IMG/VR virus record: IMGVR_UViG_3300029104_000077
Coordinates: 1-4,330 of that record
DNA: 4,330 nucleotides
Source: a virus
Taxonomy: Duplodnaviria > Heunggongvirae > Uroviricota > Caudoviricetes
Strand: one strand, 5' to 3'
A program made the position numbers and the translations under genes. Under the pieces are notes generated by a model, which saw nothing but the letters and a program-made list of their open reading frames with translations, was not told where the DNA came from and did no database searches. Positions 1-4,330 of the stretch are shown here, piece after piece. Numbering within the stretch: position 1 is the first letter of the stretch; every line of letters starts with the position of its first letter.

Positions 1-630
1 GCAAAAAATGACCCGTTAACAGTTGACCCGTCAAATATTGACCCCTCAACGGTTGGCCCGTCAAATTTTGATGGATCAACGGTTGATAAAAAACTGCCGG
101 TCAGGGGGGCGATGATTGACCCCGATCCGTCAGTATTAAAACCTGATCCGTCAGATAAAAGATCTTCTTGTCCGGACGTTTCACTGCCGGACGAAAAACA
201 ATCATCACCAGTTGAGCGATTTCTGGAGAAACACCCGGATGCGCATACCTGGAATGTACCGAAGCGACAGTGGGGTACCCGTGAAGATGTCGCCTGTGCG
301 CAGTGGATTTGGGGACGGGTTGTGGCGTTGTATGAACAGGCCGCCAGTGATGATGGTGAGGTGTCACGCCCCCGAGAACCTAACTGGACGACCTGGGCGA
401 ATGATGTGCGCATGATGCGTATGCTGGATGGACGTAGTCACCGGCAGATTTGTGAAATGTTTGGGCGTGTCCAGCGGGATTCGTTCTGGGTAAAAAACAT
501 CATGAGTCCGGCAAAACTCCGGGAAAAATGGGATGAACTGGTTATCCGCCTGGGGCGTTCGCCCGCGCAGCGTTGCGTGAATCACATTTCTGAACCGGAC
601 ACTGAAATACCGCCTGGATTCAGGGGGTGA
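1..630 (+). CDS. Phage replication initiator (lambda O-like), C-terminal portion; 5' end lies upstream of the window
   Basis: Frame 1 is open from position 1 with no stop until TGA 628-630, so the track ORF 112..630 is only the internal-Met part of a longer gene. Positions 1-170 encode a D/P/S-rich low-complexity linker (..DPLTVDPSNIDPSTVGPSNFDGSTVD..DPDPSVLKPDPSD..) coincident with the DNA-level iterons, followed by a globular-looking C-terminal region. It sits 6 bp upstream of a DnaC-like loader gene. An origin embedded in the initiator gene is the established lambdoid arrangement; assignment by organisation, not by recognised sequence identity. Confidence 0.55.
   Translation, partial: AKNDPLTVDPSNIDPSTVGPSNFDGSTVDKKLPVRGAMIDPDPSVLKPDPSDKRSSCPDVSLPDEKQSSPVERFLEKHPDAHTWNVPKRQWGTREDVACAQWIWGRVVALYEQAASDDGEVSRPREPNWTTWANDVRMMRMLDGRSHRQICEMFGRVQRDSFWVKNIMSPAKLREKWDELVIRLGRSPAQRCVNHISEPDTEIPPGFRG
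9..98. repeat. Tandem 15-bp direct repeats (iteron-like), about 5 good copies plus a degenerate sixth; core TGACCCGTCAA with internal dyad TGAC-CC-GTCA
   Basis: Seen directly: tgacccgttaa (9-19), tgacccgtcaa (24-34), tgacccctcaa (39-49), tggcccgtcaa (54-64), tgatggatcaa (69-79), degenerate tgataaaaaac (84-94); constant 15-bp register. Each core contains the inverted half-sites TGAC/GTCA. Confidence 0.75.
9..164. other. Candidate phage origin of replication (iterons + A-rich tract + GATC cluster) inside the initiator coding sequence
   Basis: Iteron array 9-98, A-rich stretch gataaaaaactg (85-96), a second 10-bp direct repeat GATCCGTCAG at 124-133 and 145-154, and four GATC sites at 74, 124, 145 and 161. 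Location within the initiator gene just upstream of the helicase-loader gene matches the lambda ori-in-O arrangement (established knowledge). Confidence 0.6.
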
Positions 631-636
631 CGTGGC

Positions 637-1383
637 ATGAAAAACATTGCGGCAGCCGGGGTTCTTGAACGTATTCGCAGACTTGCACCACAGGGGGCGG
701 TTCCACCGTACCGGACGGTGGAGGAGTGGCGGGAATGGCAGCTTGCTGAAGGACGAAAACGCAGCGAGGAGATTAACCGCCAGAATCGCCAGTTGCGGGT
801 GGAAAAAATCCTGAATCGTTCGGGCATCCAGCCTCTGCACAGCAAATGCTCGTTTGCGAATTATCAGGTGCAGAACGACGGGCAAAAACACGCGCTGAGC
901 CAGGCAAAATCCATCGCTGACGAACTGATGACCGGGTGCACGAATTTTGTGTTCAGCGGTAAAACCGGCACCGGGAAAAATCACCTTGCAGCGGCGATGG
1001 GCAACCGGCTGATGGCGAAGGGGAGCAGCGTGATTATCGTCACCGTGTCTGACGTCATGAGTGTGTTGCATGACAGCTACGACAACGGCCAGTCCGGGGA
1101 AAAATTTTTACAGGAGCTTTGCGGGGTTGATTTGCTGGTCCTGGATGAAATAGGCGTTCAGCGTGAGACGAAAAACGAGCAGGTGGTATTGCACCAGATA
1201 ATTGATCGCCGGACAGCATCACTGTGCAGTGTCGGGATGTTAACAAACCTGAATCATGCCGCAATGAGTACGCTTCTCGGTGAGAGGATTATGGACCGCA
1301 TGACCATGAACGGTGGTCGATGGGTGACGTTTAACTGGGATAGCTGGCGTCCAAATGTCAGCAATCAGAGGGTTGTGAAGTAA
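637..1383 (+). CDS. DnaC-family replicative helicase loader (prophage-encoded DnaC paralog, AAA+ ATPase)
   Basis: 248-aa ORF with ATG at 637 preceded by GGGGG (623-627). The translation contains segments I recognise as near-identical to E. coli DnaC: NRSGIQPLH..CSF.NY, Walker A FSGKTGTGKNHLAAA, Walker B DLLVLDEIGVQ, GMLTNLN, LGERIMDRM. Size and position immediately after the initiator fit a lambdoid replication module that uses a DnaC-type loader instead of lambda P. Confidence 0.9.
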   Translation: MKNIAAAGVLERIRRLAPQGAVPPYRTVEEWREWQLAEGRKRSEEINRQNRQLRVEKILNRSGIQPLHSKCSFANYQVQNDGQKHALSQAKSIADELMTGCTNFVFSGKTGTGKNHLAAAMGNRLMAKGSSVIIVTVSDVMSVLHDSYDNGQSGEKFLQELCGVDLLVLDEIGVQRETKNEQVVLHQIIDRRTASLCSVGMLTNLNHAAMSTLLGERIMDRMTMNGGRWVTFNWDSWRPNVSNQRVVK

Positions 1384-1404: not shown

Positions 1405-2121
1405 ATGGAAACCGTATTTGACGCACTGAAAGCACTGAAAAAAGCCTCTTCACAGGTAGTGGCATCGCGCCTTGGAATCAGCCGTGAAGAGGCGGTCAAC
1501 GAACTGTGGAAACTGAAGCGCCGCGGTGAAGCGGATAACAAGGGTTCGATGTGGTGGCTGATTCAGGCTGGTGAAAGTGAACCAGTGTCACCGGTACCGA
1601 AAGTGACAGCGCAAATGCTGACAGAGGCGATTGAACAACATGGCCCACAAACGGCGGATGAACTGGCACTGATGTTCGGAATTACCTCCCGCCGGGCGAA
1701 TTCATCGCTGGCAATGGCAATCAGCAAAGGGCGTCTGATTCGCGTGAATCAGGGCGGTAAATTTCGTTACTGCATGCCGGGCGATAATTTACCAGCAGAG
1801 CCGGAAGCTGCATCCGCAGCGGAAACGGATGGTAAAGCCTTTCCTCAGCCAGCAGGAGTTGCGTTACCAGTCCAGGAAACAACGACACAGGAAGAAATGA
1901 AAACAGAAATCGAGGAAGACATTGTGAAGTTACAGCCATCGGTCACTGAAGCGAAAGCAGATGACCTGATTCTACCATCGCTGCATGTGGCTAACCGCGA
2001 GCTGCGCCGGGCGAAAAGTGATGTTCAGAAGTGGGAGCGAGTCTGTGCTGCGCTACGGGAACTGAACAAACACAGGGATATTCTCCGGGATATTACCGCC
2101 ACCAGAGAGCAGCAGCGGTGA
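1405..2121 (+). CDS. Hypothetical phage protein with two winged-helix-like segments and an acidic, coiled-coil-like C-terminus
   Basis: ATG at 1405 preceded by GGAGG (1392-1396) at 8-nt spacing, preferred over the TTG at 1387 used by the ORF track. 238 aa. Two internally similar segments ([32 protein letters not shown] and [37 protein letters not shown]) resemble HTH recognition helix plus wing; the C-terminal third is E/Q/K-rich. No family confidently recognised. Confidence 0.6.
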
Positions 2122-2435
2122 GTGGCTGGAAGAAGTGGCGCTGGGCTGAAATCCTGATACTCCGGCAGTGTGCGGGAACGATGAAAGTCGAAAGCATCGG
2201 TTATCTGATTGGCCGTAGTGAGTCAGCCGTCAGGACGAAAGCGCGGGAACTGGGTCTCAGCATGATGTTACGGGGTGATTATCACCAGTCAGCCAAATGT
2301 TCACAGCGTGATATTGAGCTGGCGCGGCAACTGCATCAGCGTGGTGTACCCCGACGGGAAATTGCCGAAAAGTTTGGGATGAAGTTGGGCGCAGTGAATA
2401 ACTACGTTTATTTCGACAGGAGGGTTCAGGAGTGA
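2118..2435 (+). CDS. Small putative DNA-binding protein with two HTH-like motifs (N-terminal GcrA-like / sigma-70 region-4-like motif)
   Basis: Frame open from 2031, but the GTG at 2118 overlaps the upstream stop (gGTGA, 2118-2121) in a coupled arrangement; ATG 2181 is an alternative start. Residues [46 protein letters not shown] resemble the W..E..L..L..G.S...IA..LG....AV..K..RLGL pattern of GcrA-type N-terminal DNA-binding domains; a second HTH-like segment is [34 protein letters not shown]. The motif begins right at 2118, which supports that start over 2181. Confidence 0.5.
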
Positions 2436-2734
2436 GGGTGAGGGTTTATATCGCCGGTCCGATGACGGGATATGAAAATTTTAACCGCGAGGCATTTCAC
2501 AAAGCGGAAGAGGTGCTGAAACGGGAAGGGCATACCGTTTTAAACCCGGCAGTACTTCCGGACGGGCTGACTCAGCCACATTACATGGATATTTGCATGG
2601 CAATGATTCGTTGTGTGGATGCGATTTACATGCTGAAAGGCTGGCAGCAGTCGGCAGGTGCAAGGGCTGAGCTGGCACTGGCGGAGAAACTGGGCCATGC
2701 GGTGATTTTTCAGGAGGTGGGCAGTGAATATTGA
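2432..2734 (+). CDS. DUF4406-like small protein (nucleoside 2-deoxyribosyltransferase-like fold), function unknown
   Basis: 100-aa ORF; GTG start at 2432 overlaps the upstream TGA (2433-2435), with AGGAGG at 2418-2423. N-terminal VYIAGPMTG..NFNREAF, then AIYMLKGWQQSAGARAELALAEKLG with a Glu in the expected position. This matches my memory of the ~93-122 aa phage/bacterial DUF4406 family with one invariant Glu, related to nucleoside 2-deoxyribosyltransferases. Not verified by search. Confidence 0.7.
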   Translation: MRVRVYIAGPMTGYENFNREAFHKAEEVLKREGHTVLNPAVLPDGLTQPHYMDICMAMIRCVDAIYMLKGWQQSAGARAELALAEKLGHAVIFQEVGSEY

Positions 2735-3026
2735 CCCGGCGATAACGATTGATATGGCCCTGAACACCGGCCTGGCGCTTCTTGGTTATTTCTACATCAT
2801 GTTCTGCAGCGGACGATGGCTGTCACTGTTGTTCATGAAAAAATGGAATAAACGCCGTAAGCAGGAGCAACGCCAGAAGGCAATGGATGCATTTTTCGAA
2901 GCCTTCGGGATTGACGGCATGGAACCAGGGGATCCAGCTCGCGCAATTAGCAGAGGGGGCGTAGTAATCCTTGTATACCGGAGTGAAGAGAAAAATGAGC
3001 GAGATCAACTATCAGGCACTGCGTGA
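2724..3026 (+). CDS. Small predicted single-pass membrane protein (hypothetical)
   Basis: GTG start at 2724 with AGGAGG (2712-2717) at 6-nt spacing, 8 nt before the upstream stop (2732-2734). 100 aa with one hydrophobic segment (ALNTGLALLGYFYIMFCSGRWLSLLF) followed by a strongly basic stretch (KKWNKRRKQEQRQK), i.e. a positive-inside single-pass topology. The last ~10 codons overlap the next gene's start, so the exact extent is uncertain. Confidence 0.45.
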   Translation: MNIDPAITIDMALNTGLALLGYFYIMFCSGRWLSLLFMKKWNKRRKQEQRQKAMDAFFEAFGIDGMEPGDPARAISRGGVVILVYRSEEKNERDQLSGTA

Positions 3027-3624
3027 GGCGGCAGTAGCAATTGAAACAGTAGCAACGCCTCAAAAATTGCTGGCATTTCGTATGAAAGTCACACCTCAGG
3101 TTGTGCTGGCGCTACTGGATGAACGAGATGCATTAAACGAACGCATAGCCGAACTGGAGGCTAATTTAGCGGAGCTGGCCGAAGACCAACAGAAAGCGAT
3201 TGAGTCAATTAAGCAGGCTGATGCGGCTGTTAAGTTGGCACACGAGAAGTTTTCGGAGCTGGCAGCGGAGAATGCGGCGCTTAAACAGTCGGAGAAGGAA
3301 TTTAATAACTTCTGTCGTCAGGAGTACTACGGTTGGGAGGACAACTTCACGGAAACCCCAGCCACCGATGCTTTTCTGGCTGAAATTCGTGCGGAAGCAC
3401 GCAACGAGGGGATTAACTATACCGCCAGCCGTCTTGCTGCTGCGTTCAATCACGGATTTATCAATAAGTCTTTGCGTGAAGTTTTCGACGTTACGCGCAT
3501 GATTCTGTCAGCGAAAGAAGAGTTGGCTAATGAACCGCATCCGATTGATGGCCTGTCTGGTGAATATGCGGAAAAATCCCTAGAAGAATGGGCGGAACAG
3601 ATTCGCAAAGGAGGCAACCAGTGA
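2995..3624 (+). CDS. Ea22-like (ead/Ea22 family) phage protein, paralog 1
   Basis: ATG at 2995, preferred over TTG 2971. 209 aa. N-terminus MSEINYQALREAA.. and the segment VTPQVVLALLDERDALNERIAELEANLAEL followed by a long coiled-coil-like region match my memory of the lambda Ea22 N-terminal module (MSEINSQALREAAE...LLDERE...). Not verified by search. Confidence 0.6.
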   Translation: MSEINYQALREAAVAIETVATPQKLLAFRMKVTPQVVLALLDERDALNERIAELEANLAELAEDQQKAIESIKQADAAVKLAHEKFSELAAENAALKQSEKEFNNFCRQEYYGWEDNFTETPATDAFLAEIRAEARNEGINYTASRLAAAFNHGFINKSLREVFDVTRMILSAKEELANEPHPIDGLSGEYAEKSLEEWAEQIRKGGNQ

Positions 3625-4330
3625 GCAAGATTGACTATCAGGTACTGCGTGAAAAGGCAGAAAAAGCAACGTGTGGTGAGTGGTCTCTCGAATATGGAGA
3701 GAGCCGATTTGATGGTGATGATGCACTAATTCATCGCGAGGCTGCTGGATATATTCCCATTTGCAGAATTGAAGGAGCGCATCCTGAAAGCGGTTTCGAT
3801 GAAGATTTCCAAATGGAACAGCAGGCCAATGCTGAATTCATAGCAGAGGCCAATCCGGCTACTGTGCTGGTACTGCTGGATGAACTGGAAGCCGCAGAGA
3901 AGCGCAACGCAAAATTACAAAGCGAGAATGCATACATCCGCAACCGGTACAAAGAACTGGACCTATTAATCGGGAAAAACATTCTTGTCATGCAGGCTGC
4001 GATTATCGAATGGCAGGCAACTGGCGACGCTAAAAGCGGACTGGCATGGATTTATAACACACTGTTTGGCCCAGGCGAGTTGCCGGACGAATCTGAGAAA
4101 GATGCTCAGGCCTACTTTAATCGCAAATATGCACCGATTGACGAAAAGCTTATGGCGCTTCACAAGTGGTTTTGGGAACAAAGTGAAGCCGAATTCGCAT
4201 CAAAGGAGAGTGATATGAGCGCTATTACCAAAGAGCGACTGCTGACAATCAGGCAGTGGCGCGAAACATACGTACCTGGTAGCAACGTTGTACTGCCAGC
4301 AGAAGAAGCGGAAGAACTGGCACGGATTGC
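3621..4330 (+). CDS. Ea22-like phage protein, paralog 2 (3' end beyond window)
   Basis: GTG at 3621 overlaps the upstream stop (GTGA, 3621-3624), with AGGAGG at 3609-3614 at 6-nt spacing. I translated the frame by hand and found no stop through 4330; it is absent from the ORF track only because it has no in-window stop. N-terminus MSKIDYQVLREKAEKATCGEW.. and ..ANPATVLVLLDELEAAEKRNAKLQSENAYI.. share the module seen in paralog 1; the rest diverges. Confidence 0.6.
   Translation, partial: MSKIDYQVLREKAEKATCGEWSLEYGESRFDGDDALIHREAAGYIPICRIEGAHPESGFDEDFQMEQQANAEFIAEANPATVLVLLDELEAAEKRNAKLQSENAYIRNRYKELDLLIGKNILVMQAAIIEWQATGDAKSGLAWIYNTLFGPGELPDESEKDAQAYFNRKYAPIDEKLMALHKWFWEQSEAEFASKESDMSAITKERLLTIRQWRETYVPGSNVVLPAEEAEELARI

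Follow-up and report, generated by a model that had tools for sequence, protein, structure and literature searches.

The 4,330-nucleotide (nt) stretch analysed here, from the Caudoviricetes record IMGVR_UViG_3300029104_000077 and called the window below, carries at positions 8-94 an array of short repeats that is very probably the replication origin of a lambdoid, Rac-like Escherichia coli prophage, located inside the gene of the prophage's own initiator protein. Flanking elements extending to about position 195 are probably part of the origin too. The observations behind this assignment are the repeats themselves, a constraint acting on their DNA, the identities of the initiator gene and its neighbours, and a pattern across relatives in which each initiator type carries its own type of repeat. 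The sequence-only reading of this DNA had proposed an iteron-type origin within the initiator frame, and initiator identity, DNA-level constraint and type-specific repeats across relatives all support that proposal.

Repeat array and initiator gene

Tandem Repeats Finder detected two arrays, one of period 15 at window 9-64 with 3.7 copies and 75% matches, the other of period 30 at 2-86. A window search with TTGACCCGTCAA allowing up to two mismatches returned exactly five sites (8-19, 23-34, 38-49, 53-64 and 68-79), the last scoring best on the minus strand. These sites are 12-base-pair (bp) near-palindromes with the consensus TTGAC-CC-GTCAA, spaced at exactly 15 bp with 3-bp spacers between the 12-mers. 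Chance alone would give about 0.34 matches of the TTGACCCGTCAA type over the full length of the window, the observed count was reached in 0 of 200 shuffles, and all matches of this type in the 10.7-kilobase (kb) genomic context (L001) fall inside the array, which comprises five units and a degenerate sixth:

8-19, plus strand: iteron unit 1, ATGACCCGTTAA, two mismatches to the consensus
23-34, plus strand: iteron unit 2, TTGACCCGTCAA, the consensus itself
38-49, plus strand: iteron unit 3, TTGACCCCTCAA, one mismatch
53-64, plus strand: iteron unit 4, TTGGCCCGTCAA, one mismatch; TTGACCCGTCAA at this place in most relatives
68-79, minus strand: iteron unit 5, inverted, TTGATGGATCAA with reverse complement TTGATCCATCAA, two mismatches
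83-94, plus strand: degenerate sixth unit, TTGATAAAAAAC, holding an A6 tract

The position of unit 5 is consistently inverted and reads CTGAGGGGTCAA in some alleles, a run of A5-A7 follows the last unit in relatives too, and a weak extra unit straddles the window start. Certain close E. coli alleles (L020-L032, compared with window 8-22) are without exactly one 15-bp unit, giving a gene of 954 nt instead of 969 nt. The sequence-only reading had placed five to six tandem 15-bp repeats with a shared core at 9-98, followed by an A-rich stretch. The repeats hold up under Tandem Repeats Finder, mismatch search and shuffling, and the description is accurate apart from some details that needed adjustment: the units share a near-palindromic core, but the exact core TGACCCGTCA occurs only once (24-33) and the other units are one or two bases off; the 15-bp phasing is tandem, but units lie in both orientations; the array does occupy the proposed interval, but there is the weak unit at the window start, and related elements and a conserved box continue to about 195; and a short A-tract is present at 84-94, but the best candidate for unwinding is at 130-169 instead.

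Window position 1 corresponds to nt 340 of the initiator gene, and window 1-630 (plus strand) holds its 3' two-thirds. We recovered the full gene (969 nt, 322 amino acids, stop codon at window 628-630) at L001 4662-5630 on the chromosome of E. coli SMN152SH1, a stretch of which is 99.7% identical to window 1-700. As had been proposed, the repeats are in frame with this gene: the units translate within the open reading frame (ORF) that is open at the left window edge and stops at 628-630, encoding NDPLT-VDPSN-IDPST-VGPSN-FDGST-VDKK. The assumption that this partly upstream gene encodes a replication initiator is likewise supported: the protein has a winged-helix N-terminus, its residues 1-322 match all 298 profile positions of PHROG 391 'replication initiation O-like' (E 5.7e-106), and a DnaC-type loader gene comes next. 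Its database label is only 'helix-turn-helix domain-containing protein'. HTH_36 is the sole Pfam family above cut-off for the 322-residue protein (27.7 bits against a cut-off of 25). Membership in the lambda O family Phage_rep_O (PF04492) was ruled out, as a Pfam search of the same protein gave no match to this family even at E values up to 1; proteins from L149, L117 and L125 do match it.

An AlphaFold2 model of a close homologue (P0001, 320 residues, 88% identical to the window protein, from a 37-sequence alignment) consists of a winged helix at 1-104, a segment at 109-173 with a predicted local distance difference test score (pLDDT) below 50, and a confident helical domain at 178-297. Foldseek returned weak matches only for the modelled N-terminal domain (best E 4.7e-3), all of them winged-helix DNA-binding regulators, and no informative match for the modelled C-terminal domain; in a sequence search of solved structures nothing matched the initiator except the DnaT tail discussed below. 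In this model the repeats sit exactly in the segment encoding the predicted disordered inter-domain linker, a placement that explains how the DNA can hold binding sites and yet be translated.

Of 5,426 complete E. coli genomes, 1,891 contain DNA that matches window 1-700, in most cases with 80-90% identity, and near-identical alleles of the module are present in several genomes. A Megablast search of a phage collection matched only from window 570 on, in the loader region, and the initiator was traced through E. coli genomes and searches with the protein. Close relatives hardly differ in the N-terminal half and the repeats and diverge far more in the C-terminal half, which indicates a putative recombination junction just right of the origin, from about gene nt 511 (window 170) on.

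Constraint on the DNA of the repeats

With a period of 15 bp, or five codons, the array could in principle be a peptide repeat, a possibility that had to be ruled out. Such an explanation would make the array a pure low-complexity D-P-S repeat produced by replication slippage, with the DNA itself functionless, and it would fit the in-frame period, the predicted disorder of the encoded stretch and a copy number that changes by whole units (linkers are 73 to 110 residues long, and the difference between close alleles is exactly one 15-bp unit). We gathered 80 close relatives on viral contigs, 67 loci on contigs chosen as one genome per species and additional phage records, and measured constraint in 12 homologues of the same N-terminal type with 48-61% protein identity, from Escherichia, Shigella, Klebsiella, Erwinia, Mixta, Edwardsiella, Pantoea and Citrobacter. 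Units with TGAC..TCAA arms in 15-bp phase are present in each of the 12. Where two proteins share an amino acid, the frequency of identical codons over all pairs is 0.80 in the linker versus 0.50 and 0.49 for the two folded domains (Mann-Whitney p 1e-16), and for pairs between subgroups it is 0.69 versus 0.36 and 0.46 (p 3e-6), whereas the amino-acid identity of the linker stretch is the lowest of the protein in the same homologues. Serine is encoded by TCA in 49% of cases in the linker versus 13% elsewhere (Fisher p 1.7e-15).

Units in both orientations expose this constraint most directly. Forward units outnumber inverted ones by 27 to 14 in the window's subgroup; the peptides encoded are IDPST, VDPSN or IDPPT in the forward orientation, whereas inverted units such as TTGAGGGGTTAA preserve the DNA motif yet encode the unrelated peptides VEGLT, VKGSM, NDGLT or FDGST. 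The residue preceding the Asp codon varies among V, I, F, N and S, yet the last base of its codon is almost always T, which lengthens the palindrome arm. Sister families have repeats with periods of 22 and 23 bp at the same place, which cannot be peptide repeats because these periods are not multiples of three. The codon-level comparisons show that the constraint on the repeats acts on DNA and not on the peptide, and we regard a functionless peptide repeat as scarcely credible. The sequence-only reading had argued that this DNA must satisfy both coding and binding demands, a view with which codon identity, TCA bias and two-way units all agree. The array thus provides an example of overlapping constraint, in which predicted DNA-binding sites lie within the coding sequence of a disordered linker and the inverted units make the DNA-level constraint clearly visible.

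Repeat types and related origins

The initiator's C-terminal domain is common to genes with many different N-terminal domains, and in more than 60 loci a distinct motif and period went with each N-terminal type, located at the same place in the gene, about nt 300-520:

Window type (HTH_36): window, SfIV and Klebsiella phages; period 15 bp; TGAC..TCAA
mEp460 type: mEp460, with a C-terminal domain 76% identical to the window's; period 23 bp; GGTCAAAATG
MSQIFEIVQ type: L103, L107, L112 and L114; period 22 bp; AATCGCGGAAC
Second HTH_36 type: L102, L104, L113, L115 and L120; period 21-24 bp; motif different from gene to gene
Distant Phage_rep_O type: Xenorhabdus and others; period 12 bp, mostly as 3+3 copies; CCGCACATAA
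Phage_rep_O: L149 (Pfam E 1e-33); spacing 20-24 bp; lambda-like ATCCCTCAAAA

The L149 repeat served as a positive control, as we take ATCCCTCAAAA to resemble the lambda iteron. This catalogue of N-terminal domain and repeat types could help to predict origins and incompatibility and to type replicons in lambdoid prophages. Two contigs with a mEp460-type initiator gene typical of Escherichia phages carry the labels of metagenome-assembled genomes (MAGs) from other bacteria (L094, Bacillota; L096, Veillonella parvula) and are probably binning contaminants.

This pattern bears on whether the repeats might be sites for a protein other than the initiator, such as IHF, Fis, DnaA, SeqA or a YdaT/CII-like regulator, and act as a regulatory element. 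The binding protein is not identifiable from sequence alone, GATC sites cluster beside the array, and one exact DnaA box lies about 70 bp upstream. However, across the same loci repeat type tracks the initiator's N-terminal domain with the C-terminal domain constant, the equivalent repeats of lambda are experimentally established initiator sites (PMC7466680), and those of phi80 are annotated as gp15 sites in its GenBank record. DnaA boxes are not enriched (20 with up to one mismatch in 10.7 kb versus 21 expected) and the single exact box is not conserved in SfIV, on which grounds we also rejected a DnaA-dependent origin. No promoter-like sites were found in L001 4500-5700; a promoter array, which the resemblance of TTGAC to a -35 hexamer might suggest, was discarded on finding neither sigma-70-like promoters nor terminators in that interval. 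We consider a binding protein other than the initiator very improbable. A plasmid-type iteron origin, with direct repeats of about 17-22 bp spaced at about two helical turns, does not fit units spaced at 15 bp in both orientations. Single-strand hairpins are marginal on both strands (z -1.95 and -1.87) and explained by the palindromic units, and Rfam gave no matches in the window.

The arrangement appears to be of the ordinary lambdoid kind: five units and a degenerate sixth lie in the inter-domain segment, they are specific to the N-terminal type, and a loader gene follows downstream. Type-specific intragenic repeats have been described as a rule in phages lambda, P22 and L (PMC8022706), and the origins of lambda and Stx phages have been studied biochemically (PMC7466680). 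As in lambda gene O, the window's repeats lie in mid-gene between an N-terminal domain for DNA binding and a C-terminal domain for partner recruitment (roles predicted for the window protein), an A+T-rich stretch, modest in the window, lies to their right, the next gene encodes a helicase-delivery protein, and unit number varies among relatives (four in lambda and six in Stx phages; PMC7466680). In contrast to the lambda iteron, a 19-bp imperfect inverted repeat (PMC7466680), the window unit is a 12-bp near-palindrome repeated every 15 bp in both orientations, in agreement with the difference noted in the sequence-only reading. The N-terminal domains also differ (HTH_36 in the window, Phage_rep_O in lambda O), as do the partners, a DnaC-type AAA+ loader in the window and lambda P in lambda. 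Lambda has the stronger A+T-rich region.

Phage phi80 gene 15 (GenBank JX871397) shares the C-terminal domain (34% identity, E 4e-25) and has four annotated gp15 binding sites at the equivalent gene position. The resemblance continues to the right of these sites, where phi80 has CAGTATTAAAAGATCTTCGTCCGAGAA compared with CAGTATTAAAACC...GATAAAAGATCTTCTTGTCCGGACG at window 131-178, and the phi80 origin region holds CAGTATTAAAAGATCTTC, similar to the window's unwinding candidate at 130-169. In contrast, the phi80 N-terminal domain is unrelated, its four 15-16-bp sites are TTCCCGAAAACGG-like with 21-bp spacing, and its partner gene 14 is lambda P-like. The name 'Replication protein 15', used in one database record, led to phi80 gp15, which shares the C-terminal domain only. 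In Salmonella phages P22 and L, type-specific repeats in the initiator gene (gene 18) are likewise read as the origin; in phage L an 11-bp motif is present in six imprecise copies, a precedent for short units in an origin that was also assigned from sequence (PMC8022706). Unlike the window, these phages have other repeat and initiator sequences and a DnaB-type helicase (gp12) as partner.

The gene order is also that of the Rac prophage of E. coli K-12 (ydaS-ydaT-ydaU-ydaV), which shares a loader 80% identical to YdaV and an IPPGFRG tail on the protein encoded before it. In contrast, YdaU belongs to DUF1376 and resembles the window protein in the tail only, and its internal repeats are different. 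Rac ydaU (L153 3472-3578) contains four AAGCAGATGTTCAA-like internal repeats and perfect inverted repeats TGTTCAAACA, which may be the repeat part of the Rac origin.

Right-hand elements, proposed mechanism and neighbouring genes

To the right of the array follow, in order, the A-tract, a G-rich spacer, GATC-carrying iteron-like sequences (116-154) and a conserved box, with the candidate unwinding region overlapping the last two:

116-127 TTGACCCCGATC, 124-133 GATCCGTCAG and 143-154 CTGATCCGTCAG, plus strand: GATC-carrying iteron-like elements, conserved at the DNA level in type-A relatives
130-169: candidate unwinding region, lowest in stability of all 40-mers within the gene, A+T content about 67%, free energy (dG) z = 2.3
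164-194: conserved right-hand box, CTTCTTGTCCGGACG...GCCGGACG, with an 8-bp palindrome GTCCGGAC at 170-177 and a second CCGGAC at 188-193

The box is conserved at the DNA level among relatives with unrelated N-terminal domains and repeats, and it resembles phi80 DNA lying right of the annotated gp15 sites. Same-residue codon identity is 0.86-0.91 in the box and 0.82-0.91 over the GATC elements and box together, where third codon positions are as conserved as first and second. We first read the GATCCGTCAG elements as extra type-specific iterons and dropped this reading since one copy, the distal one, also stands behind a different repeat type in L106; this copy would belong to a common right arm rather than to the type-specific repeats, and the roles of the elements are uncertain. 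Four of the seven GATC sites of the window cluster within 91 bp (74-164), three of the four inside 130-169, and a cluster at this place recurs in each of the 12 genes that share this N-terminal type, and the 22-bp-repeat type has it too, which suggests possible control by Dam and SeqA. The origin of lambda consists of repeats, a stretch that opens readily and a right arm containing a palindrome. By analogy, the window layout can be read as the same three parts, with 130-169 as the putative unwinding site and the origin probably extending right to about 195.

From this homology of organisation we infer how the origin would operate. The winged-helix N-terminal domain of the initiator would bind the TTGAC-CC-GTCAA near-palindromes every 15 bp in both orientations, the resulting multi-protein complex would destabilise the adjoining A+T-rich, GATC-rich stretch at about 130-170, and the C-terminal domain and a DnaT-like tail would bring the DnaC-type loader (637-1383), which would load host DnaB. 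Transcription of the initiator gene would pass through the origin, as in lambda. The tail is a distinct element of the protein:

577-627, plus strand: C-terminal tail of the initiator, candidate loader-docking peptide, VNHISEPDTEIPPGFRG, DnaT-like

Of these last 17 residues of the initiator (VNHISEPDTEIPPGFRG), 13 are identical at the very C-terminal end of E. coli DnaT (VNTVSEPDSQIPPGFRG), and the tail of Rac YdaU (VNTVSLPDSAIPPGFRG) is also very similar. The three proteins are otherwise unrelated, and each of their genes lies directly upstream of a DnaC-type loader gene. The tail may be a docking peptide for such loaders; how DnaT recruits DnaB/DnaC is stated as unknown in a 2026 paper (PMC13377028). 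More widely, at least three tail types follow the common C-terminal domain (..IPPGFRG, ..HWNSxEAWENxL and ..QDYRAGVxADGSF, from the 3' ends in L086-L152), and in a crude motif scan a DnaC-like gene was always found downstream of the ..QDYRAGVxADGSF tail and in some loci only downstream of ..IPPGFRG.

Several points weigh against an origin at 8-94. Unit 4 reads TTGGCC in the window, a minority G variant of the TTGACC found in 59 of 81 related loci, and substitutions within the unit cores are tolerated in close E. coli alleles. The A+T-rich region at 130-169 is only modest by its stability and composition. Half-sites lie 7-8 bp apart, which is unusual for winged-helix dimers and makes the binding geometry uncertain, and the repeats abut the N-terminal coding region, such that physical linkage could partly explain their co-variation with the N-terminal domain. 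No paper on this 15-bp repeat was found by sequence string or keyword in the open-access literature (PMC and bioRxiv). Lastly, the prophage may be defective, in which case the window copy might not fire. A decayed origin, with the family function as proposed and the window copy no longer replicating, would fit not only the unit 4 variant but also the degenerate unit 6, an inverted unit at the G-rich spacer in relatives (TTAAGGGGTCAA) that is degenerate in the window, and the often cryptic state of such prophages, Rac among them. The initiator and loader ORFs are nevertheless intact, near-identical alleles are found in several genomes, and four or five good units are left where two iterons suffice for lambda in vitro (PMC7466680), so that decay of the window copy is in our judgement unlikely. 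On the preferred reading of 8-94 as an origin within its initiator gene, the analysis locates the likely origin of a replication module matching 1,891 of 5,426 complete E. coli genomes and leaves the general picture of how such origins work unchanged.

A bolder combination of features can also be put forward, and we rate it as a doubtful one. The half-sites TTGAC and GTCAA alternate every 7-8 bp, units recur every 15 bp (about 1.4 helical turns) and orientations are mixed, features with which the winged-helix initiator might form a continuous filament spiralling around the DNA rather than a lambda-style wrapped complex, jointly with GATC coupling and a portable tail. If so, the GATC-carrying iteron-like sites by the unwinding region would couple firing to Dam methylation and SeqA, and the IPPGFRG tail of DnaT, Rac YdaU and the initiator would be a portable peptide docking DnaC or DnaB-DnaC, which would bear on how DnaT recruits the helicase (PMC13377028).

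The surroundings of the initiator gene are those of a lambdoid early region. Upstream of it in L001 lie genes for a LexA-family repressor, a Cro-like protein and a YdaT-family protein, an order as in Rac ydaS-ydaT-ydaU-ydaV. The loader matches the NCBIfam model PRK12377 (E 7e-153), the DnaC equivalog model (E 1e-89) and PHROG 50, and window 1405-4330 is ordinary lambdoid early-region cargo:

637-1383, plus strand: helicase loader gene of the DnaC type, with 80% identity to YdaV of the Rac prophage
1405-2121: DUF1627 protein gene, in the position of YdaW
about 2118-2435: small helix-turn-helix protein gene
2432-2734: DUF4406 protein gene
2724-3026: DUF4752 protein gene
2995-3624 and 3621-4218: two tandem Ead/Ea22-like genes, with a further ORF from 4215

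The Klebsiella phage relatives L083 and L085 have no DnaC-type gene after the initiator. Both carry a gene for a Dam-family adenine methylase (L083 2357-3181; L085 2142-2951), directly downstream of the initiator in L085 and after one short ORF in L083, and this gene may be connected with the GATC cluster of the origin.

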